Below, piece by piece: positions 1,187 to 41,269 of a stretch of 44,592 bases of DNA. The notes under the pieces are model-generated. The model did no database searches, had not been told where the DNA came from, and saw only the letters and a list, made by a program, of their open reading frames with translations. The DNA is from Escherichia phage BEK1-1. The DNA lies in sequence record MN158212.1; one strand, written 5' to 3'. How positions within the stretch are numbered: the first letter of the stretch is position 1; every line of letters begins with the position of its first letter. A program made the position numbers and the translations under genes.

Positions 1187-1262
1187 ATTTAACCTCGTTC
1201 GTCGTTGATGGGGGTAATCATACTCCACCTTTTAATTTTTTATTTAGCAATTTGTGCTATTT
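1187..1262 (-). promoter_or_regulatory. box promoter (AAATAGCACAAATTGCTAAA, 20 nt, TATGAT, leader ACCCCCATC...) upstream of the annealase gene
   Basis: Direct reading of the reverse complement; same architecture as the other copies. Confidence 0.5.
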
Positions 1263-2226: not shown

Positions 2227-2420
2227 TTTATCTTAACCTCTACGTTTCTAAGTGATACATCTACAGGTATTTCACTGCATCCCATAATAGCTTTTGATAT
2301 GCCAGAGCATGTTGTTGTTATGTTTATCTCTCTTCCAGTTTCAAATTTTATCCTTATTCTTACCTCTGGATCTGATTCGTCGTTGTATGGTGACTTATTT
2401 ATGTCTATAAAAGCCTTCAT
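2223..2420 (-). CDS. hypothetical protein (65 aa)
   Basis: ORF overlapping the exonuclease start by 4 nt (coupled arrangement). Confidence 0.3.
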   Translation of the reverse strand: MKAFIDINKSPYNDESDPEVRIRIKFETGREINITTTCSGISKAIMGCSEIPVDVSLRNVEVKIK

Positions 2421-2424
2421 ATTT

Positions 2425-2823
2425 TTACTCCTTAACCTTAACTACTTTAACAGACTTCAAATCTTCTTCAGTGAAGTATCCGCTCAGTACATCCCTAGCT
2501 TCCTCTTTAGTCTCGAATCTGTCAGCCTCGCTCTTATTCGTGGTGTATCCAGCTGGGCCACCAAAATAGCAGTCGCCGAACAGTGCGTTGTTTTTCTCTT
2601 TGATAATGTAGTAGGTCATTTCTGCATCTCTCTGGTTGTTTGCTTTGGATGAGGTAACTATATATTCGCAAGTACAGCCAGTCCAATTGGTTTCGCCAAT
2701 CGTTGATTCAAACTTACGCGTGAATATTTGTAATTCTGTGTAGGCATTGGCACTAGTTACGTTTCTTGGCATCTCATCCCAGATATAGCTCAATGTAACC
2801 ATCGTGTATATCGTGTATATCAT
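2425..2823 (-). CDS. hypothetical protein (132 aa; start uncertain)
   Basis: First gene leftward of divergent control region A; no recognisable motif. Confidence 0.35.
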   Translation of the reverse strand: MIYTIYTMVTLSYIWDEMPRNVTSANAYTELQIFTRKFESTIGETNWTGCTCEYIVTSSKANNQRDAEMTYYIIKEKNNALFGDCYFGGPAGYTTNKSEADRFETKEEARDVLSGYFTEEDLKSVKVVKVKE

Positions 2824-2927
2824 TTATTGCTGATGGTGCATTGGTATAGCTGCCGTGCAATACTGTATAAATCCACATGATACTAAAATTATAACCGGAA
2901 CACTCCAGAACAGTAGTTACATGATAT

Positions 2928-2985
2928 ACACAGTAATATATATAATAATAATAATAATATTAAAAGGTTGATATATATAGATATT
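2928..2985. repeat. AT-rich element copy 1: ACACAGTA-(ATA)n-TAAAAGGTTGATATATATAGATATT
   Basis: Near-identical copy at about 29732..29797 with a different number of ATA units; core TATCAACCTTTTA (minus strand) fits the IHF consensus WATCAANNNNTTR. Confidence 0.7.
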
Positions 2986-3104
2986 TTAATGTAACTATTG
3001 CGTAAATTGGCGTAACAGAGCGTATATCATTTTTCGCGGATGGGATTGCATACATCGAGTTACATCGGTTACGTGTAACTGTGATTTGTGGTGAAATTGG
3101 CGAT

Positions 3105-3150
3105 AAATAGCACTAATTGCTAAAGACAACTGACTATCTTTAGGTATATT
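3105..3150 (+). promoter_or_regulatory. box promoter (AAATAGCACTAATTGCTAAA, 20 nt, TATATT) upstream of the Rha-like gene
   Basis: Direct reading. Confidence 0.5.
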
Positions 3151-3222
3151 TAGGCGCATGGCGGCAATGGTGTTGTCTGATCTACCGATTTTCGGTAGAC
3201 ATAAATAACTGGAGAGAATGAA

Positions 3223-3870
3223 ATGAACATTGAAGTGTGCAAAGAACAATCAAAAACCATGATGAGCACAAAGGAAATCGCAGAGTTAACCGGCAAACGT
3301 CATGATCACGTCGTTCGCGACACAAAGGAAATGATCAATGAATTGTTACATTATAACGATGCCCCAGATTTGGGTCATGATGATTATCAACTACTTACAG
3401 ACAATCGAGGCTATACATCTGAGATTTTACTCAACAAGGAACTAACCGAAACGCTAATCACTGGCTACAGTGTCGTACTTCGCCACAAAGTAATCCGCAG
3501 GCTTCATGAACTTGAGGCTTTAGTTAAAAAACAAGCGGAAGTAATCAGCCAGATGGTAAGCATTGATGAGCTTAAAGAGGTTCGAATGATGCTTGGTGTG
3601 GCTAATGCGCAGAATGCACACCTGAGCCAGCGCATTGTTGCAGAGCAAAGAATAAATGAGATCTTACTCATGGATAAGAGTACCGATGAAAAACTAGACA
3701 TGCTGGCTTGTGAGGCTCGCCAGTGTTGGGTTAGTCGATCTGATGAGATGGAGGAAAGATTTAAGTATGAAGCCCAATGCTTCGCCCTTAAAGAAAAGAA
3801 TGATGCGCTGACCGGATTGATTGAGAATAATCTCGGCATTGACATCAAGCTGCTGCTGGAAAAGAAATAG
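3223..3870 (+). CDS. Rha-family phage regulatory protein (antirepressor-like)
   Basis: N-terminal ...STKEIAELTGKRHDHVVRDTKEM... resembles the Rha signature; C-terminal half coiled-coil-like; RBS GGAGAG. Confidence 0.5.
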   Translation: MNIEVCKEQSKTMMSTKEIAELTGKRHDHVVRDTKEMINELLHYNDAPDLGHDDYQLLTDNRGYTSEILLNKELTETLITGYSVVLRHKVIRRLHELEALVKKQAEVISQMVSIDELKEVRMMLGVANAQNAHLSQRIVAEQRINEILLMDKSTDEKLDMLACEARQCWVSRSDEMEERFKYEAQCFALKEKNDALTGLIENNLGIDIKLLLEKK

Positions 3871-3910
3871 CACTAATTGCTAAACACTGATCGCAAGGAT
3901 GCGATACTAT
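3865..3910 (+). promoter_or_regulatory. box promoter (AAATAGCACTAATTGCTAAA, 20 nt, TACTAT, leader ACTCCATCGAAACGAAA) upstream of cor
   Basis: Direct reading; the box overlaps the stop codon TAG of the preceding gene. Confidence 0.55.
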
Positions 3911-3945
3911 TACTCCATCGAAACGAAATTACTAAGGAATACAAA

Positions 3946-4176
3946 ATGAATAACTTCATCAAATCAGCAATCATCGCAGCAGCAGTAATCATGGCAGTTG
4001 GTTGTTCTTCTGGTCCTCGTCCTGATGGTTGGTGTGCAACGTCCTCAAACGGGGTGTGCGTAGCTAAGTGGAAAGGCGGTGTAGTTGTTCCTGCTGGTGA
4101 AATTGACATTCGATACGATGGAATTAAAGGCTCCAGTGGCTCCGTTCGTGATTATGGCTCTAAGGAGTGGAATTAA
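3946..4176 (+). CDS. cor: Cor-like superinfection-exclusion outer-membrane lipoprotein
   Basis: Internal ATG of track ORF 3877..4176; [22 protein letters not shown] = signal peptide plus lipobox; about 76 aa; position next to the tail-tip genes as in T1/phi80-type phages. Confidence 0.65.
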
Positions 4177-5141: not shown

Positions 5142-8100
5142 AGAAAGTACCTACTACAACTCTCCCTCCTCCAGGCAAGTTAACCGTGATTCCGTTTCCG
5201 TTAATCTGTACCGTATTGTTTGTTCCGTTAAAGGCGAATTCACCACTGTTGGCGTACAGTTTGCCGCGAATCTCAGCGTTACCAGACTTATCAATCCTCC
5301 ATCCTGTGCTTCCTGCCACGTAGTTGCTGGACTGAATAAAGTCACCAATCTTCGCGTTAGTAATTGAGCCATCTCCGATTACTGCGCTTTGGATGATTAC
5401 GTTTCCGTTCTCTACAACGAAGGGTAGTTGCCATTGACCGGAGCCAGAACCAATGCCATTACTGATTGCGAATCTGTTTGCGTCAAAAATAAACTGACTG
5501 CGAACATTATCACCAGTGCCAACTAGCTCCATGCTCATGCCGGATGAATAAGTCTGACCATTGTATTTCAGGCCAAGACTAATTCCGTACTGTACACCAG
5601 TTGACGTGGCATTAGAGAAAGCGTCTAACTTCTGGTTTAGAGCCGCCTCGTTTTCGCCAAGTCTTGCTGATAGAGCCGTGTCTGCTGTAGTCCTTGCTTC
5701 TGTCTCTGTGGCTAATGCAGTCTTAACTTCAGTAATCGATGCTACAACTTCATCATCTATCTGCGCTTTAAGGGCCGTTAGAGCCTCTACGCGTGCCTGA
5801 GTTTCATCGGCTATGAGATTCACCGCCTGAACATATTCAGCCTTACGTTTGCCGTTCTCCTTAGTCATGCGACGAACATCAGTGTCATTAGCCAATGCGT
5901 TCTCAAGAATTGACTCTGCCTGATTCTGAATATCCTGATTCTTTTGAATCGCATTCTGCTCCAGGTATTTGAATCCTTCAGAACCCTCAATATCAACCTT
6001 GATGTAATCATTGATAATGTTAGCGTCGTCAGTACTCATGCCTCTAGCAAAATAAGACCAATCAGAGGTATTTCCGATTCTGTCAATCAATCTTGCGCGA
6101 TACCAGATGACCTTACCTGGCTGAATTGGCGTATGCCAGTACTCATAGGCTGGATAAGGTAGTAAAGTCAGCGAGCTTGCGTTATCTGGATTGTAAGTAC
6201 CATCGCCATTATCAGGAACCTGCTGAAGCTCAGTGTAAGCAGTATCACCAGAGCCTTCAGGGAAACCCCACTTAACACGAATGCCGAATACCTCATCTGT
6301 TGATGCCGTGATAACAGTAGGCGCAGATGGGCGACCAATCTTGCCAGTTAGCGATACCGTTACAATGTCAGACCAGGAAGACACGTTTTCAGTATCTGAT
6401 ACGCTGCGAACCCTAACGTCATAGATTCCTGCGTAAATACCTTCGATATCAACCTCTGTGCTAGCTGTTCTGGGTACGTTAATCCAGTTGCCATTCTCTT
6501 TTCTCCACTGAACATTGTAGGTTTTAGCGTATGGAGCTTTATCCCATCCGATAACCATCGTCTCAACCGACAAGCCCTGAACAACCTTGCTATAACTTGA
6601 CACGGTCAAGTTTTCTGGTGGCGACAATCTGTCAGGCTCTACGATTGAAGTCGGGCGGTCAACAATGTTTACGCCATAATCAATCTCGTCATACTTGTTA
6701 GGGTCGTACTCCACTGCTGTAATCGTATACTGGAATGAATCCGATCCATCAGAATCTGCTTTTTGAATCCCGGTCACAACATATTGCTGAAGAGCAAGAT
6801 TGTCCTTATCAATTGCGAACACAGTATCAGGTTGAGCTACAAAGCTAAAAGCAGTATTCAGGTTGATGGTTCTACCGTCTTCCGAAATGCTGGCAATAGT
6901 TCTCGCTTCAGGGCTTCCGTCGGGTTTGTTCAGAAGAATTCTGTCACCTGGAGCTGCGTCAACTTTAAACTGGGTAAAAACCTGCAATCCCTGAACTGAT
7001 TCAATACGACCGGAAAGGTTTAACTGATAGTTACTAGACCATGCCGCGTCATTAACCGCAATGACCTCTCCAATCATCGGAATCATGCCCTCCAACCCAG
7101 TGGTGAAGCTGATAGTTTCGCTTCTCAGGTTGGTTTTCAGGAGCCATCTGCCGCGTCTGTTTGCTTCACTTCTCCGCGTACATCCAATTGCCGTAAGGTC
7201 GACTGGATTAAATCCGAATCTGCGAGTAGCTTCCAGTTCAAATACCGGCTCAACATCCTGCTGATAGTTGTTCTCCACATCATCAAACTGAACGTTCGCC
7301 GTAGTGTAAAGGCTCTTATCACTGGCAAAGGTGCGACTGAACAATCCGTTTACAACGTTATCATTCGTGAAGATGTAAGATGGGTTGCGAGGCTTATCAA
7401 CCACTATACCAATCTTTTCGCCATCATAGAAAGTCAGGCCACGGAAGATTGAGCAGATATCACGAATTAGCGTGTAGGCCTCAACCTTATTCTGTACAAC
7501 CATATCGCACAGGTAGCGCGGCTCCATTCCACCTTTTCCATCAGGAACCATCTGGTCGCAGAATTGCGCAGCCTCGTAAAGACCCCACTTATCAATCTCC
7601 ACGCCCAACTCTCGTTGATCAAGGCCATAGCGACGGTTTGTCACTAAGTCATAAAGAACCCAAGCTGGGTTATTTGACCATGCCATTTTGAACAGTCCAT
7701 TCCATGTTCCGCTGTAAGTTCTTGCTTCCGGGTCGTAGTTGGTTGGGACCTGAATCAGCTTCCAGCGCTTCTTGATAGAGATTGTCGGTATTCCGTTAGG
7801 GAAAAGGTCAGATCCAAACTCAACATAAACCAGAGCCGTAAGCGGATAGCGGAATTTAGCGTCAATTACTTCCTGATAGGTTGTAATCTGCATCCCGTTA
7901 ACCAATGTGCTACTTGTTGAATCCGCTGTAATCTTTCGGATGCGAACCAATGCGCTATCAAATTCAGCCGGAAGGTTCACTCGAATGCTGCGGTCGTAAC
8001 CTGTAGTTGTCTTTCCGTTGGCAACTCCTCGAGTATATTCCTGATAAGCGCCACCATTAACAGAAAGATCAATCGCATACTCGCAGGTTGTTCCGTTCAG

Positions 8101-28363: not shown

Positions 28364-28385
28364 TGTTTAGCAATTCGTGCTATTC
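28340..28385 (-). promoter_or_regulatory. box promoter (AATAGCACGAATTGCTAAA, 20 nt, TATGAT, leader ACCCAATCGAAAACA)
   Basis: Direct reading; the box overlaps the TAG stop of the upstream gene. Confidence 0.55.
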
Positions 28386-28904
28386 GCCGATAATAAGCGA
28401 TTTAGCTTTCCGGTAGAAATCGACAGCCCTCTCCACCTCTTCCTCATTGTACCGCAAGTGGTATGGTAGTCTACTAGCGTGCTCACCTTCGTAAGTTTTG
28501 AAGTTAGGTTGCCAGTACTCATCAATGATAGCTGGGTGGACGTAAATCTTATCCCCAATGAGGAAAACTAGATTCATTTCCTCTAGATCAGGGATTAGTT
28601 CGTCCTTAATGCGAGCTATGATATCAAGGCATCCTACGAACGGCTTAATCTTTCGAGCCTCCTCGTGTACAGACTTGACACCCACCACTCCCCTTCCGTT
28701 TCTTGCCATCTTCCTGATCAGCTTAATCAGAACTCCCAGCGCTTCATCTCTGTAGACTTCCGATGCATCAGGCTGGCCCCATAGGTGCTGAACATGCCGA
28801 TAACCGTTAGCATTGATTGCAACCCGCAGTGGCGGTAGCCCATCCTGGATAGCAATATTCATAATCTGCTCGTCCGTCAGTTTCTCTTCATCGAAATTAA
28901 ACAT
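28380..28904 (-). CDS. hypothetical protein (174 aa), short paralogue of the 527-aa P-loop protein
   Basis: N-terminus MFNFDEEKLTDEQIMNIAIQDGLPPLRVAINANGYR and C-terminus ...NGRGVVGVKSVHEEARKIKPF...LIGDKIYVHP align with the ends of ORF 31388..32971. Confidence 0.5.
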   Translation of the reverse strand: MFNFDEEKLTDEQIMNIAIQDGLPPLRVAINANGYRHVQHLWGQPDASEVYRDEALGVLIKLIRKMARNGRGVVGVKSVHEEARKIKPFVGCLDIIARIKDELIPDLEEMNLVFLIGDKIYVHPAIIDEYWQPNFKTYEGEHASRLPYHLRYNEEEVERAVDFYRKAKSLIIGE

Positions 28905-29452: not shown

Positions 29453-29731
29453 GTTGATACCTCGTTTCGTTTACTTCGTTTCAGTGATTGCCATCTTGCC
29501 ACTTGTTTACGTGTCGGTCAACGTATTTTTATGTCTATTTCATCGCGGATACGTTTTTCGGCCTCCAAGTTAGCGTCAGCACTGGTTGTAAACGTGCCGT
29601 ATCCCCTGTGTACAGTTTTGTAGGGTACTTTCCTATATATGTGCCTTTTTATTCCTACAATGTCATCCCATTCTGACAAGTGTCAGAATATCTGCACGGA
29701 ACATATCAACTATTGCCTCCGTGAGCGGTAT

Positions 29732-29797
29732 ACACAGTATACATATATATAATAATAATAATAATAATAAAGTAAAAGGTTGATATATATAGATATT
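29732..29797. repeat. AT-rich element copy 2: ACACAGTA-(ATA)n-TAAAAGGTTGATATATATAGATATT
   Basis: Near-identical to 2928..2985, with a longer ATA run. Confidence 0.7.
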
Positions 29798-29983
29798 ATA
29801 TTGTATATCGTGTGTATATCTCGCGTAAAAACGTAGGTTAGTGGTCACTAACTTTTGTGACGACACTGAGTATACGGAGGATACGCGTATATCGATGAGA
29901 ACCTTACCGATTGGTAAAAAATCAACTTGTATGGTAGTCCATCCATCTTTCATTCACTCACTCACCACTTTATTTTACTTTTC

Positions 29984-30069
29984 GCAACAATCAAAGACAT
30001 CATTGCATCTGAAGCAATATTGCTGTATATGCAATAATCATGTGAATCATTGCAATATCTGCAACAATC
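29984..30069. repeat. iteron-like cluster (GCAACAATC x2, ATCATTGCA x2, palindrome GCAATATTGC)
   Basis: Direct reading of gcaacaatcaaagacatcattgcatctgaagcaatattgctgtatatgcaataatcatgtgaatcattgcaatatctgcaacaatcc. Confidence 0.5.
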
Positions 30070-30085
30070 CATAAATCTGACGAAT

Positions 30086-30584: not shown

Positions 30585-30745
30585 TGCTGCTGCCATCTGA
30601 GATAAATTATTTCGATCTTGAAGTCATAAGCGCATACAGCTGGAAGGGTTGGCCTTGCGGGGACTGGTTTCGCGAAGACTTACTTGAGAGTCATGAAATT
30701 ATGCTCAAGGCCATAGAAAAAGCACGAAATAGCACTAATTGCTAA
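30584..30745 (+). CDS. hypothetical protein (53 aa)
   Basis: ATG overlaps the upstream stop (TGATG); 3' end AAT AGC ACT AAT TGC TAA coincides with the box. Confidence 0.35.
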   Translation: MLLPSEINYFDLEVISAYSWKGWPCGDWFREDLLESHEIMLKAIEKARNSTNC

Positions 30746-30772
30746 ACACTGATCGCAAGGATGCGGTATTAT
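30727..30772 (+). promoter_or_regulatory. box promoter (AAATAGCACTAATTGCTAAA, 20 nt, TATTAT)
   Basis: Box and spacer nearly identical to the cor promoter (CACTGATCGCAAGGATGCG). Confidence 0.5.
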
Positions 30773-31387: not shown

Positions 31388-32971
31388 ATGTTCGATTTCA
31401 ACGAAGATAAACTATCTGTTGAACAGGTTATGGCAATTGCTGCCGCAGAAAACCTCCCGCCCCTGCGCGTCGCCATTAATGCTAATGGCTATCGCCAGTC
31501 CCAGTCATTCTGGAAAGCACCAGTCGAGATTGATGCAGCTAATGACAAGTATCCAGTAATCTCACTAGGTAATGACATTGATGTTGTTGGTAAGCTGTCA
31601 GCTAATATTGCCCGATCTGTTCAGTTCCCTGAGTCGTCAGCTTACATGCACTTCCTGGGGTGTATTTCCGCTGCAATGCTGGGTCGATTTACTGTTGAGT
31701 ATCACGGAACGCAGCAACCGACTTCGCTTTACGTCGTAACAAGCCAGCCACCATCCACTGGTAAATCAGCCATTAACTCGCTATCGATTGCTCCAATGAT
31801 TGCTGAGACTCAGCGACTAAATGAAGTTAGAAAGCGTGAGCGCAAGAAAATTATGGCAAAACTATCTGCATTATCGAAAGAGATGAAACAGGAAAAATCT
31901 CCGTCAGAGATGGCCTCTCTTTTTGAGGAGAAGGAGGAGTTGGAGGAAAAACTCGAGAAACTATGCGATATCGTTTTCCCAGTATCAGATACCACACCAG
32001 AAGGTCTGGCCCGAATCAACAACCGCCAGGGCAACTTTGCTGTAATCTCTGATGAGGCAACGAGTGTAAACTCACTACTTGGCATGACCTATGGTGACGG
32101 CTCAAAGAAAACGAACAGCGAACTGGTACTGAAGGCATGGGATGCTGGTAACGTATCTATCGCTCGCGCTAACGCTGAAAACAACATGAGTTTTGTTGCT
32201 ATGGGTTGCATCTCTGTAATTGCGCAGGATGAGACAATCAACGCTATCATGAACGCTGGCGCGCGTGGTATCGGTGTATCTGAGCGTTTCCTGCTTGTAC
32301 GTGAAAAGTCATTCCTTGGCGAGCGTGTATTCGTTGATGAAAATGGCGAATCGACTTATGAACCAATTGATGCCGGGTTGAAGGCTGATTACTTCCGTTT
32401 AGTTCACGAAATCATGAATGAGCAAGATGTAAAGTTGACGGTGAGCAACTCAGCGATGAAATATCTCAACCGTGCACGTCAGGAAATGGAGCCTCATCTT
32501 GCTGACGGCGGTAAGTATTCCCACACAATGTTGCGCGGCGCGCTGGGTAAGTTCGATAAACAGGCTATAAGGATTGCAGCCGTTCTTCACACAGTTCGCA
32601 ACTGGTTCAACCCTAACGGTGGGAGTCCACAGAAGTCCAGAGAAATCGAGCTCGACACCATGCAAGAGGCTGTGATTATGTTCCAGGAACTGAGTAAGAC
32701 TTATTTGTCATCTGCCAACGCTGCGGGTCACGCTGGCGACAATGCAGAGATGAATAAGCTGATTGATATCCTGATTAAGCAAGGCAAAAACGGGAAAGGA
32801 GTAGTAGGTATTCGTTCGCTATATGAAGCGGCTCGCAAGGTTAAGCCATTCGAGGCTCAGGCTGGAGTGATGACGAAGATTAAAGATCACCTGCTGCCAA
32901 TGCTTGATGAGAAAAACTATACGTGCCTGATTGGTGATAAGGTTTACATTAATCCGCGACTTCTGGGGTGA
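31388..32971 (+). CDS. P-loop NTPase-like protein (527 aa), long paralogue of ORF 28380..28904
   Basis: Walker-A-like ...TSQPPSTGKSAI..., Walker-B-like ...FAVISDEAT... about 100 aa later; N- and C-terminal about 45 and 65 aa match the 174-aa protein. Confidence 0.5.
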   Translation: MFDFNEDKLSVEQVMAIAAAENLPPLRVAINANGYRQSQSFWKAPVEIDAANDKYPVISLGNDIDVVGKLSANIARSVQFPESSAYMHFLGCISAAMLGRFTVEYHGTQQPTSLYVVTSQPPSTGKSAINSLSIAPMIAETQRLNEVRKRERKKIMAKLSALSKEMKQEKSPSEMASLFEEKEELEEKLEKLCDIVFPVSDTTPEGLARINNRQGNFAVISDEATSVNSLLGMTYGDGSKKTNSELVLKAWDAGNVSIARANAENNMSFVAMGCISVIAQDETINAIMNAGARGIGVSERFLLVREKSFLGERVFVDENGESTYEPIDAGLKADYFRLVHEIMNEQDVKLTVSNSAMKYLNRARQEMEPHLADGGKYSHTMLRGALGKFDKQAIRIAAVLHTVRNWFNPNGGSPQKSREIELDTMQEAVIMFQELSKTYLSSANAAGHAGDNAEMNKLIDILIKQGKNGKGVVGIRSLYEAARKVKPFEAQAGVMTKIKDHLLPMLDEKNYTCLIGDKVYINPRLLG

Positions 32972-37662: not shown

Positions 37663-37696
37663 TCTTTAAAATCGTCTTTAGCAATTCGTGCTATTT
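37651..37696 (-). promoter_or_regulatory. box promoter (AAATAGCACGAATTGCTAAA, 20 nt, TATAGT, leader ACTCCATCGAAACGAAA)
   Basis: Direct reading of the reverse complement. Confidence 0.55.
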
Positions 37697-40101: not shown

Positions 40102-40149
40102 ATCTGAATTCCTATAAAAATTGTCTTGTAGCGTTTAATTGAGTACAAT

Positions 40150-40191
40150 ATTACCATCAAATCATGATGACTTTTAACAAAAAATGCTATT
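40150..40191 (-). promoter_or_regulatory. box promoter, half-box variant, upstream of the helicase gene
   Basis: CAATAGCATTTTTTGTTAAA, 20 nt, AATATT on the reverse complement. Confidence 0.35.
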
Positions 40192-40202
40192 GAGGTAATA
40201 AG

Positions 40203-40688
40203 ATGAATGCAGTCGACAAGCGAACCATTAACGGTAATAACGGAACCATCCGCACTGAAGACAAAAAGCAACGGAAACGACCTTCAGGTTACTACGTTTT
40301 GAAAGATGAGGTAAGGGCGGGTTTACGTGCGCGGCTGGAAATTGTTCTTGATTTCTTCGGCACAAAGGCAAATATGGCAAAGCAATTAAAGGTAACACCA
40401 CAGGCTGTAGAGGAATGGTTTAAGCGCGGCATGATTTCTGCGCGCGGGGCTCAACTCTCACACAACTACTACAAGCGAACCGGGGAAGGCTTTCGCGCCA
40501 CATTCTGCCGACCAGATCTGCAATTCGACGGCAACGGCAAGCCTCTTACTCTACGTTGCAAAAAGCGTCACATGCTGCGTGTTGTTACTGAGGCTGAATT
40601 AGCCACCAAGCCAGAGTGTCGATCATGGCGCAAGATTAAGGAAGAGAATCGCAAAAAGCGAGAAGCAGAGAAAAATAGCACGAATTGA
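40203..40688 (+). CDS. putative HTH DNA-binding regulator (161 aa)
   Basis: ...FGTKANMAKQLKVTPQAVEEWFKRGMIS... resembles a Cro/CI-type helix-turn-helix; basic N- and C-termini. Confidence 0.45.
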   Translation: MNAVDKRTINGNNGTIRTEDKKQRKRPSGYYVLKDEVRAGLRARLEIVLDFFGTKANMAKQLKVTPQAVEEWFKRGMISARGAQLSHNYYKRTGEGFRATFCRPDLQFDGNGKPLTLRCKKRHMLRVVTEAELATKPECRSWRKIKEENRKKREAEKNSTN

Positions 40689-40738: not shown

Positions 40739-41269
40739 GTGTATATGAAAGTTAATGATTTTGTTTATGTTGATGATGAATTTAAATTAAGATGGAAGAG
40801 TAGAGGTGTTGAATTCTTCAAAACAGAGAGGTCATCAAAGATCTGGAATAGTAGGTTTGCAAACAAGGAATGTGGATACATTAGGGATGACGGCTATCTT
40901 TCTTTTGAGTTCAATGGTCGAGCATACAGAAATCACAGGGTGATATGGGAAATTGTAACTGGTAATGAAATAGATGATAACATGGAGATTGACCATATAG
41001 ATCATAATACAACAAACAACAATACTGAAAACCTTAGACTTGTTGACAGGAAAGAGAATTGCAAAAACCAATCCATGATGCCCCATAACTCGAGTGGCTT
41101 CACAGGTGTTCACTGGTGGTCAGCAAGAAACAAATGGAGAGCCCGCATCGAATGTGATGGCAGAGTGAAAACAAAAACATTTGAAGACTTTAATGACGCC
41201 GTCGAGTGGAGAAAAGAAATGAACATAAATCTTGGCTTTCACAAGAATCATGGAGATAAGAAAAAATGA
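40739..41269 (+). CDS. HNH homing endonuclease with AP2-like domain (paralogue of 34780..35265)
   Basis: ...YRNHRVIWEI...EIDHIDHNTTNNNTENLR... and ...SGFTGVHW...KWRARIECDGRVKTKTFEDFNDAVEW... Confidence 0.7.
   Translation: MYMKVNDFVYVDDEFKLRWKSRGVEFFKTERSSKIWNSRFANKECGYIRDDGYLSFEFNGRAYRNHRVIWEIVTGNEIDDNMEIDHIDHNTTNNNTENLRLVDRKENCKNQSMMPHNSSGFTGVHWWSARNKWRARIECDGRVKTKTFEDFNDAVEWRKEMNINLGFHKNHGDKKK

Follow-up and report, generated by a model that had tools for sequence, protein, structure and literature searches.

The locus considered here, hub A, is the gap of about 400 nt between ORF 2425-2823 on the minus strand and a rha-like gene (3223-3870) on the plus strand of Escherichia phage BEK1-1 (MN158212.1), a T1-like siphovirus of the Drexlerviridae (Braunvirinae). 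The whole stretch that was analysed, 44,592 nt, is referred to as the window. A preliminary description had put the ORF on the minus strand, which is borne out, and the motifs that it listed for the hub are all present, displaced by 1-2 bases at most: TTGCGTAAATTGGCGTAAC lies at 2998-3016, the repeated GTTAC motifs GTTACATCGGTTACGTGTAAC at 3059-3079 and the box AAATAGCACTAATTGCTAAAGAC at 3105-3127, with AAGACA-16 nt-TATATT ending at 3150. The parts of the hub, and the features elsewhere in the window that bear on it, are the following.

2773-2823, no strand assigned: conserved block overlapping the annotated 5' end of ORF 2425-2823, with AATGTAACC at 2791-2799 and ATCGTGTAT twice in tandem at 2801-2818
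2815-2836, plus strand: copy 1 of a 22-nt direct repeat, GTATATCATTTATTGCTGATGG, 86% identical to copy 2 at a spacing of 207 nt
2888-2893, minus strand: TATAAT, a -10-like hexamer facing the leftward orf-recE operon, with no recognisable -35
2911-2922, plus strand: left flanking repeat CAGTAGTTACAT, GTTAC at 2916-2920, inverted with respect to 2989-3000
2918-3000, plus strand: AT element, a proposed DNA unwinding element, paralogue of 29722-29812 by alignment
2936-2960, no strand: (TA)4(AAT)n microsatellite within the AT element, read from the sequence
2961-2973, minus strand: predicted IHF-consensus site reading TATCAACCTTTTA, an exact match to WATCAANNNNTTR
2974-2985, plus strand: block TATATAGATATT, conserved in the family (hubs A and B of Braunvirinae and TLS-like phages)
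2989-3000, plus strand: right flanking repeat ATGTAACTATTG, GTAAC at 2991-2995, inverted partner of 2911-2922
3000-3024, plus strand: GCGTA three times, at 3000, 3010 and 3020 (exact 10-bp phase); the middle copy overlaps GTAAC at 3012-3016
3022-3043, plus strand: copy 2 of the 22-nt direct repeat, containing a conserved TTYCGCGGA motif at 3033-3040
3059-3079, plus strand: cluster of GTTAC, GTTAC and GTAAC at the right end of the conserved core
3080-3104, plus strand: 25-nt joint, only in phages with the rha cassette on this side
3105-3150, plus strand: box promoter of rha (21-nt repeat 3105-3127, -35-like AAGACA 3123-3128, -10-like TATATT 3145-3150)
3181-3199, plus strand: hairpin TCTACCGA-TTT-TCGGTAGA in the rha leader, a perfect inverted repeat of 8 bp
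3223-3870, plus strand: rha-like gene (Pfam Phage_pRha, E 1.2e-8)
28380-28904, minus strand: 174-aa paralogue of the helicase without the ATPase domain, consisting of the N-terminal 45 aa and a winged-helix C-terminus
29722-29812, plus strand: second AT element, in hub B, flanked by GTATAY repeats
31388-32971, plus strand: DUF3987 protein, a predicted MCM-like AAA+ helicase with a C-terminal winged helix

The AT element and its second copy

That the two hubs have one element in common, as the preliminary description proposed, holds well: 2918-3000 aligns almost identically with 29722-29812, except that the (TA)n/(AAT)n run is not equally long in the two copies, and the element is conserved throughout the family. 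In the window it is the least stable duplex of the genome over both 60 and 100 nt (z 5.7 and 5.2), with 2934-2993 as the least stable 60-mer (z 5.7), and in all six genomes examined the least stable 60-mer likewise falls in an AT element. Exactly two AT elements are found in each of the window, Rtp, Rogue1, T1, TLS and Sanco (six genomes from five lineages), where they rank lowest in duplex stability (z 4.5-6.1; the next segment reaches at most 3.9). Their positions are syntenic, hub A lying upstream of the recE-erf-ssb operon and hub B between divergent early clusters. Hub A stays joined to the recE operon even where the gene order is rearranged, for example in Sanco, and a homologue of the adjacent recE is found in more than a thousand phage records of the collection, many of them Drexlerviridae. 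The pattern ATAATAATAAT-N4-30-TATATAGATATT gave two strict matches in each of nine T1-like IMG/VR contigs, this DNA scan being more productive than the protein-seeded locus searches, which gave 7 and 3 loci. In the window TATATAGATATT occurs only at 2974 and 29786, once per hub; T1 carries ATATATATAGATA in its place in both hubs. No earlier description of the paired element was found in the literature searched, the genome papers of Rtp (PMC1367250) and T1 (Virology 2004) lying outside that search.

The conservation across the family suggests that the AT element is functional rather than accidental. Low duplex stability by itself proves little, since Vibrio phage K172, picked as a distant relative but in fact an unrelated myovirus and used as a control only, also has two AT-rich outliers at divergent intergenic regions. 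Within the window, a further AT-rich stretch that could be an origin is the gap 40102-40202 between the divergent genes for an HTH regulator and an SF2 helicase (z 3.2). Copies and phages have between 3 and 6 AAT units, so that the blocks to the left and right are not locked in phase and the core appears to tolerate changes of length, as an unwinding element would. An origin of the hairpin or cruciform type was rejected, as single-strand folding of both AT elements is not special (z -0.4 to -2.3). A small RNA at hub A was likewise dropped: an Rfam covariance-model search of 2300-4000 on both strands, with E-values up to 1, gave no match.

On the minus strand, 2973-2961 reads TATCAACCTTTTA preceded by the AT-rich AAAATATCTATATA, and the same sequence is present in hub B. 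The IHF consensus is exact in both window hubs and in every Rtp-like copy of hub A, has one mismatch in hub B of Rtp and in both hubs of Rogue1, and has no match in TLS or T1. The common architectural factor that had been suggested is plausible for the window as a host protein, though its site is degenerate in Rogue1, TLS and T1. No conserved DnaA box (TTWTNCACA) was found in hub A, the best match being AAATCCACA at 2869-2877 (7/9), where Rtp carries AAATCAACA; a DnaA-dependent origin was rejected on this ground.

Repeats and promoters around the AT element

Over the 166 nt of the hub A core, 2912-3077, Rogue1 has 81% identity, above the weighted genome average of 71%, and the flanks of the core cannot be aligned between these two phages. 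Dozens of BLAST matches end at window position 3077, and in Rtp the similarity between hubs A and B extends over 126 nt. The repeats nearest to the AT core form an inverted pair (2911-2922 and 2989-3000; 12 nt, 92% complementary, 66 nt apart), and the nearest flanking repeats are oppositely oriented in Rtp, Rogue1, T1, TLS and Sanco as well. Invariant in nine sequences are AGTAGTTACA in the left flank (Rogue1 included), ATGTAAC in the right flank, TTT.CGCGGA.G in copy 2 of the 22-nt repeat and AGTTACATC.GTTACG.GTA in the cluster 3059-3079. Motifs similar to the third of these are found in hub B of Rtp and of TLS, and the two copies of the 22-nt repeat bracket the AT element.

Eight copies of GTTAC/GTAAC lie within 200 nt of the AT core where 1.03 are expected (P 1.3e-5), the top cluster of the genome. 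One is close on the left (2916) and two are on the right (2991 and 3012), with further copies at 2756, 2795, 3059, 3068 and 3075. The window, Rtp, Rogue1 and T1 have in common the order GTTAC then GTAAC around the core, with 7-8 copies where 1.1 would be expected, and T1 keeps the cluster even though its hub A gives no BLAST alignment to the window. In other lineages the word differs: both TLS hubs have GTTCAC and then GTGAAC around the AT core, and both Sanco hubs TCTTAC and then GTAAGA, with 11 copies in hub A (P 1.6e-15). On the plus strand no complex 5-mer other than GCGTA forms a phased triple, an arrangement reached in 1 of 2000 shuffles. Phased GCGTA/YGTAWA is also found to the right of the AT core in both hubs of Rtp and Rogue1, in hub B of IME253-like phages and in hub B of T1 (GGCGTAATTT twice).

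The view that each hub has its own local repeat set is right for the window, in which hub A has eight copies of GTWAC and hub B none, with GTATAY instead. As GTWAC is also missing from hub B of Rogue1 and T1, the hubs are not equivalent, which counts against reading them as origins. The same view fails in other relatives, since hub B of Rtp, IME253-like and ESCO41-like phages has GTAAC together with phased GCGTA-type repeats, which suggests that the repeats belong to an ancestral shared unit rather than to independent sets. A comparison with related genomes had been put forward as the check on these repeats, and in it both the AT element and the flanking repeats proved to be conserved, the latter with a word that depends on the lineage.

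To the left, neither the ATG at 2823 with which ORF 2425-2823 starts nor an internal ATG at 2802 is conserved in relatives, so non-coding hub DNA may reach to about 2773. The block 2773-2823 is, to judge from its sequence, probably non-coding: CGTGTATATCGTGTATA is invariant in eight relatives and the substitutions across 2773-2800 are mostly non-synonymous.

To the right, the box is a copy of a 21-nt intergenic T1-family repeat published for TLS as aaATAGCACnnnTTGnTAAAA, which is co-oriented with the downstream gene and lies about 76 nt before its start codon (PMC11447400). It matches aaATAGCACnnnTTGnTAAAA at 3107-3124 with 0 mismatches, 99 nt before the rha ATG. The box promoter ascribed to hub A is thus present but not specific to the hub, being one of 17 copies in the window (0.6 expected), all along the direction of transcription. 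This is a promoter-associated repeat of the whole genome; neither the AT element nor the GTWAC/GCGTA repeats belong to it, and the publication describes the 21-nt repeat and not these (PMC11447400). The 25-nt joint is present in the window, CEB_EC3a, IME253-like and 12210I-like phages and absent from Rtp, DTL, L006, L008 and Rogue1, in which the box follows directly after the core. The rha gene is absent here in Rtp and lies on the other side of the hub in Rogue1, with a similar hairpin upstream of it. As read from these arrangements, the box at hub A is part of a movable rha cassette, and the rha-like gene is the cargo of that cassette, outside the conserved hub.

Candidate functions of hub A

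For the T1-like phages no replication origin is known and none could be found (PMC11447400, PMC7718038). From the anatomy of hub A, its conservation throughout the family, the repeat statistics and the helicase fold we infer DNA binding, melting and origin activity at this site. Our preferred reading, to which we give a probability of roughly 45%, is that hub A is a cis-acting site for the assembly of the replication machinery, most likely one of two origins of the T1-like phages. An origin architecture fits the evidence at least as well as the distinct specific regulators of transcription that the preliminary description had in mind.

The core of (TA)n(AAT)n...TATATAGATATT, roughly 65 bp at 2923-2988, would then be the DNA unwinding element, with the inverted GTTAC/GTAAC copies, and probably also the three phased GCGTA repeats, as iterons. 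The MCM-like helicase (31388-32971) would bind these through its winged-helix C-terminal domain and load itself on either side of the AT core in the manner of the SaPI Rep helicases, while IHF at 2961-2973 would bend the DNA. Promoters firing outward, TATAAT 2888-2893 to the left and the box 3105-3150 to the right, may send negative supercoils into the core, whereupon the phage primase and host Pol III would initiate synthesis. The copy in hub B would act as a further origin or have an auxiliary role, comparable to oriL/oriR of SPP1 or ori/crr of P4.

The DUF3987 helicase is a candidate for an origin-binding, self-loading helicase. Its gene lies about 14 kb from hub A, with hub B 1.2 kb upstream of it, and a sequence search of solved structures with the protein gave nothing significant. 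The 174-aa paralogue resembles the helicase over residues 458-526 (BLASTP, 46% over 69 aa) and over the N-terminus (40%), matches phrog_7327 and is restricted to some lineages; possibly it acts as a competitor or regulator at the DNA sites of the helicase. A single-sequence AF2 model of it was unusable (pLDDT 38). Across six genomes no co-variation was found between the winged helix of the helicase and the repeat word: T1 and the window both have GTWAC yet differ in the winged helix, which is fairly conserved between lineages with different repeats.

The alternative that survives best, though we consider it less probable than an origin, is a control region for early transcription. Here the repeats would be operators for a phage repressor or activator, perhaps with IHF, that switch the divergent hub promoters at the transition from early to middle transcription, and the AT core would serve as a spacer that can bend, as an UP-like element or as a weak promoter rich in A+T. 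Transcription does diverge at both hubs, and sigma-70-like promoters are found in the hubs of TLS (P01 and P51) and Sanco and in hub B of the window, with TTGACT-16-TATAAT before recE in T1. The orf-recE operon has no box promoter upstream of recE and so would need a promoter in the hub. TATAAT 2888-2893, kept in all Braunvirinae relatives and missing in Rogue1, would place the AT core at about -40 to -105 from the implied start. The AT core itself contains TTAATA-17-TATATT on the minus strand and three weak sites on the plus strand (each 9/12), and the AT-rich outliers of the unrelated Vibrio phage also lie at divergent promoter regions. That both hubs are promoter regions speaks against an origin, as regulation would also explain conserved repeats that bind a protein.

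Several observations argue against control of transcription as the main role. Promoter scans of both hubs did not rise above shuffled sequence (for hub A, 7 sigma-70-like sites against 4.4 +/- 2.0), and no -35/-10 pair within the AT core is conserved across lineages (TLS and T1 compared). Depending on the lineage, the sigma-70-like promoters nearest to the core lie about 40 to 300 nt away from it, which argues against a promoter-proximal role. A single HTH regulator (40203-40688) is conserved, 48-92% identical across lineages; it was rejected as the binder of the hub repeats, which differ between those lineages, and would fit the box better, as both box and regulator are conserved. Finally, short inverted repeats around an AT tract of variable length are more typical of origins.

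It seems improbable that hub A is a site for packaging or recombination, either pac-like or prone to breakage, recognised by the terminase or a nuclease and supplying DNA ends for RecE/Erf/SSB and the formation of concatemers. Its layout does recall the pac site of phage P1, where short repeats flank an IHF site, and the persistent coupling to the recE operon, as in the rearranged Sanco, would be in keeping with such a role. In TLS the pac end has been mapped to about 5882 bp from the HindIII site (PMC11447400), which the TLS record has at 5876. Together these would place pac within hub B, some 215 bp away from the AT core, and the terminal repeat of the T1 record also begins in hub B. On the other hand, a single submolar pac fragment was reported for TLS (PMC11447400), the mapped end falls outside the AT core, some 20 kb separate hub A from the terminase genes and nothing ties hub A to cleavage.

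The idea that the hub has no specific function, being AT-rich filler with repeats due to shared ancestry, gene conversion between the hubs or microsatellite slippage, is already disfavoured and very unlikely: the microsatellite does vary freely in length and the close relatives of the window phage are 85-95% identical, so that much of the invariance among them could be recent shared descent, but the Rogue1 core is conserved above the genome average, the same architecture recurs with other repeat words in T1, TLS and Sanco where the DNA cannot be aligned, and the repeat statistics are far from chance.

Returning to the origin reading, a fuller version joins two SaPI-type origins and the MCM-like helicase with a specific role for hub A, and we regard this combination as speculative and rather doubtful. 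Hub A, always coupled to recE-erf-ssb, would convert theta replication into recombination-dependent synthesis of concatemers, as has been proposed for oriR of SPP1, and in some lineages the ATPase-less paralogue (28380-28904) would regulate the origin by competing for the iterons. T1 belongs to the seven classical T phages and is notorious for contaminating laboratories. The conserved, duplicated AT element with its flanking repeats, taken together with the MCM-like helicase, provides an origin hypothesis that can be tested cheaply for the whole family Drexlerviridae. If hub A is an origin, this would carry the use of a self-loading helicase and short iterons beyond the staphylococcal satellites into virulent coliphages and would explain why two large non-coding regions are retained in compact genomes. 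Genome engineering would gain, as would annotation, several records placing ORFs or "promoters" over the AT elements.

Comparison with known origins

Escherichia coli oriC and the lambda origin combine an unwinding element, an IHF site and phased initiator sites, and flanking transcription aids their opening. The proposed elements of hub A follow this order. Of lambda-type features, neither 19-bp iterons nor O/P homologues were found in the window phage.

The satellite phage P4 has two separate clusters of short iterons, ori and crr (TGTTCACC), which are bound by the C-terminal domain of its primase-helicase, the alpha protein, a single polypeptide with primase, SF3 helicase and DNA-binding functions. 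The TLS-like hubs use a very similar word, TGTTCAC, and database records call the primases of T1 and Sanco similar to the P4 alpha type. In contrast to P4, the T1-like phages distribute primase and helicases over different proteins, with an MCM-like fold predicted for the helicase.

SPP1, a virulent pac-type siphovirus of Bacillus with a genome of 44 kb, has two similar origins, oriL and oriR, each composed of repeats and an AT-rich unwinding element, and for the second an interplay with the exonuclease, annealase and SSB in the switch to concatemer synthesis has been proposed (PMC6316719). The window phage is likewise a 44-kb pac-type siphovirus with paired sites, of which hub A adjoins recE-erf-ssb. 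The proteins differ, SPP1 using gp38, a dedicated protein, to bind the origin, together with a loader and a helicase of the DnaB type, where the T1-like phages have an MCM-like helicase; no homologue of gp38 was detected in T1-like phages, nor any sequence similarity to the SPP1 origins.

In the SaPI origins, penta- or hexanucleotide iterons lie in opposite orientation on both sides of a central AT-rich region, six to twelve in number and split over the two sides, with a word that differs by lineage (PMC9371898). Rep, a self-loading helicase of which one type is MCM-like (SF6), binds them through its winged-helix C-terminal domain (PMC9371898, which summarises the origin work of Ubeda et al. 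2007 and 2012). The T1-like arrangement differs in that each genome has two AT elements, one of them with few or no GTWAC copies, and in that hub A adds an IHF-consensus site, the phased GCGTA repeats and a microsatellite. The SaPI origin is also immediately downstream of rep, whereas the 14 kb between hub A and the helicase gene is an observation that counts against an origin here. Common to both are the AT-rich centre, a repeat word that is specific to the lineage and a helicase with a winged helix, predicted to be MCM-like in the T1-like phages; the oppositely oriented GTTAC/GTAAC copies may correspond to the iterons, with one copy close on the left in hub A and none in hub B of the window. 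It is because short inverted repeats flank an AT core in a phage that encodes such a helicase that we match hub A with the SaPI origins.

Anatomy of hub A

The window is a T1-like siphovirus genome, its gene content being consistent with the record matches. Region 2400-3900 is matched by 88 phage records at 80-93% identity, with the Escherichia phages BEK3, CEB_EC3a and Rao1 at the top; CEB_EC3a is classified as Drexlerviridae; Braunvirinae; Guelphvirus. Hub A is the divergent non-coding gap at 2824-3222, between a minus-strand ORF (2425-2823) and the plus-strand rha-like gene (3223-3870). All the elements that the preliminary description had named there exist in the sequence.

Features of hub A and its neighbours
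Left of hub A, minus strand: SSB, Erf/RecT-type annealase, exonuclease VIII
Centre about 2960: AT-rich element (2918-3000), which holds the AT core
2998-3016: TTGCGTAAATTGGCGTAAC, read from the sequence
3059-3079: GTTACATCGGTTACGTGTAAC, read from the sequence
3105-3127: box (21-nt intergenic repeat), then AAGACA-16 nt-TATATT, ending at 3150
Right of hub A, plus strand: Rha-domain protein, lipoprotein, membrane protein, then J-like tail gene

These features are not chance events, as judged from three observations. Eight copies of GTTAC/GTAAC (GTWAC) stand less than 200 nt from the AT core where 1.03 would be expected, and no cluster in the genome is denser. On the plus strand, GCGTA at 3000, 3010 and 3020 is the one case in which a complex 5-mer forms a 10/11-nt phased triple; such a triple arose in 1 of 2000 shuffles. 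TATATAGATATT is present in the window only at hub A and at hub B, a second divergent gap. The ATG at 2823 is not kept in relatives but the DNA there (CGTGTATATCGTGTATA) is invariant, so that the left boundary of hub A may lie at about 2773 rather than 2823. ORF 2425-2823 may instead begin at an ATG/GTG at 2772, and its first 17 codons are possibly regulatory DNA. The rha leader carries a perfect 8-bp hairpin, TCTACCGA-TTT-TCGGTAGA (3181-3199), just before the ribosome-binding site, and a similar hairpin lies upstream of rha in Rogue1.

A conserved core and its paralogue in hub B

Sensitive BLAST of the 399-nt hub A matched 134 phage records. Dozens of these matches stop exactly at window 3077, and distant relatives (Rogue1, JK06, phiEB49, ACG-M12, Sf12) match 2912-3077 only. 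When the core was aligned among the window, seven Braunvirinae and Rogue1, the kind of comparison that had been suggested earlier, long blocks proved to be invariant: AGTAGTTACA, the microsatellite, ATGTAAC, GCGTA x3, TTT.CGCGGA.G and AGTTACATC.GTTACG.GTA. Between the window and Rogue1, core identity is 81% over 166 nt and neither flank can be aligned; the genome-wide weighted identity is 71%, covering 56% of the window. These alignments show the core as non-coding DNA under purifying selection.

The earlier claim that hubs A and B have one element in common is borne out. The second AT copy (29722-29812), inside the 700-nt divergent gap of hub B, aligns nearly base for base with the first, the two differing mainly in the count of TA and AAT units. 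A 96-aa ORF at 29663-29953 (-), with a predicted Tyr/Ile run, crosses this copy and is almost certainly spurious. Whole genomes of Rtp, Rogue1, T1, TLS and Klebsiella phage Sanco (Webervirus) were compared with the window. In all six the two least stable 60-/100-nt duplex windows (z 4.5-6.1, the next being at most 3.9) fall at the same two places: hub A, upstream of the recE operon, and hub B, between divergent early clusters (~140-300 in records with T1 numbering). The mapped pac end of TLS (record L015, restriction analysis) is record position 1, inside hub B, and the T1 record (L014) likewise opens a 2.8-kb terminal repeat in hub B. The recE-erf-ssb block of Sanco has the opposite orientation to that of T1, and hub A has gone with it; hub A adjoins the recombination operon in all genomes examined. 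The T1 hubs gave no BLAST alignment with the window; T1 hub A and T1 hub B are 75% identical over 91 nt. The strict pattern ATAATAATAAT-N4-30-TATATAGATATT, scanned against IMG/VR, matched 18 T1-like contigs, half of them (9/18) twice, and the aligned copies share a common plan of a GATATACACAGTA-like block, a (TA)n(AAT)3-6 run, a variable linker of ~10-15 nt and TATATAGATATTT.

The short word that flanks the AT core is specific to the lineage, and its nearest copies on either side are oppositely oriented. The window, Rtp, Rogue1 and T1 use GTTAC ... GTAAC, with 7-8 copies in each hub A. Both hubs of TLS use GTTCAC ... GTGAAC, and both hubs of Sanco use TCTTAC ... GTAAGA, of which Sanco hub A has 11 copies (P 1.6e-15). 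Right of the AT core, hub A carries three or four GCGTA/YGTAWA repeats with a 10-11 nt period. The preliminary description had given the two hubs different local repeat sets. They do differ in the window, hub B there, as in Rogue1 and T1, having GTATAY in place of GTWAC; as separate sets they do not stand, since the phased right-side repeats recur in hub B of Rtp, IME253-like phages, T1 and Rogue1, which makes them variants of one ancestral unit common to both hubs. In the window, each of the two AT copies has on its minus strand an exact match to the IHF consensus (TATCAACCTTTTA), a match that degenerates beyond Rtp-like phages. Hub B also holds a dense TGCAAT/ATTGCA array of overlapping palindromes (29990-30075) just 5' of a rightward box promoter, and arrays of this type occur in hub B of Rtp, Rogue1 and T1.

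Box repeat and promoters

The box is already known, as the published T1-family repeat aaATAGCACnnnTTGnTAAAA, whose function is given as an open question for TLS (PMC11447400). As ATAGCACnnnTTGnTAAA it has 17 sites in the window against 0.6 expected, all co-oriented with the downstream gene. Each is followed immediately by a -35-like AAGACA and, 16-17 nt on, by TATAnT; if TATAnT is the -10, the palindrome TAGCA-N5-TGCTA inside the box is centred at roughly -45.

Box sites (examples of the 17) and sigma-70 promoters of the hubs
1243-1260 (-): box
3107-3124 (+): box
3867-3884 (+): box
30729-30746 (+): box
37677-37694 (-): box
29493-29521 (-), hub B: sigma-70-like, TTGACC-17 nt-CAAGAT, extended -10 TG, facing the leftward DUF7174 gene
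TLS: P01 and P51
T1: TTGACT-16-TATAAT, before recE
Sanco: TTGACA-16-TATTAT

The window promoter at 29493-29521 corresponds to TLS P01 and to the Sanco promoter.

The main rival to an origin, that hub A controls early promoters through operators, is possible though somewhat unlikely. A box promoter stands directly right of the core, driving whichever gene comes next. In the window, CEB_EC3a and the IME253-like and 12210I-like phages that gene is rha, and a 25-nt joint is present as well; in Rtp, DTL and others it is the lipoprotein gene. The rha cassette of Rogue1 lies on the opposite side of the hub. Because the gene after the core varies and rha has switched sides, box and rha are movable cargo outside the conserved hub element. 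Recognisable sigma-70 promoters lie apart from the AT core at a variable distance of about 40-300 nt, and the variable AAT count agrees with an unwinding element rather than with a promoter whose parts are locked in phase. The leftward orf-recE unit of the window lacks a box and has only a conserved perfect TATAAT (2888-2893) without a -35; promoter-like matches inside hub A are not commoner than in shuffles. As for a regulator, the HTH protein encoded between primase and SF2 helicase is 48-92% identical across lineages and so is a better match for the conserved box than for hub repeats that change with the lineage. An HNH endonuclease gene (40739-41269, +) sits between this Cro-like regulator and primase, a position with no gene in the T1, Rtp, Rogue1 and TLS records. 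A pac-related or recombination-related site is very improbable; the mapped TLS pac end, ~215 bp from the hub B AT core (PMC11447400), hints at one, but no evidence favours it in the case of hub A.

A candidate replication origin

The most likely function of hub A is as a replication origin, to which we give a little under even odds (about 0.45). The AT core would serve as the DNA unwinding element, with the GTWAC and GCGTA repeats as iterons bound by the winged helix of the phage helicase, an MCM-like AAA+ protein (DUF3987, 31388-32971); IHF would supply a DNA bend and divergent transcription the negative supercoils. Several points weaken the origin reading. Hub A is distant from the helicase gene, GTWAC is missing from hub B in several phages, and no co-variation of the helicase winged helix with the repeat word was found. 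An unrelated myovirus also has two AT-rich outliers at divergent gaps, and the gap between the HTH regulator and the SF2 helicase is an alternative candidate. A 174-aa protein (28380-28904, -) is an internally deleted helicase paralogue: the ATPase domain is gone, while 45 aa of the N-terminus and the C-terminal winged helix remain, the latter at 46% identity. It is found in IME253-like and 12210I-like relatives and is absent from Rtp, Rogue1, T1, TLS and Sanco. Such a protein could act as a dominant negative or compete at origin sites.

Two genome papers report that no origin is identifiable in T1-like phages (PMC11447400, PMC7718038), and a literature search, to which the T1 and Rtp genome papers did not belong, found no description of paired AT elements with flanking repeats. 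If the origin reading is true, this would be a known origin type in a classical phage family whose origin has long been missing. The SaPI Rep helicases, one type of which is MCM-like, load themselves as initiators; their C-terminal winged helix recognises iterons of five or six nucleotides, at least two on each side of a central AT-rich region and in opposite orientations (PMC9371898). The hub anatomy resembles this iteron / AT-rich / iteron description, with one GTWAC copy close on the left of the window's hub A core and none around its hub B. SPP1, a 44-kb pac-type virulent siphovirus, has two similarly organised origins, each of repeats and an AT-rich unwinding element, the second being the proposed trigger of the recombination-dependent switch to concatemers (PMC6316719); hub A adjoins the recombination operon.
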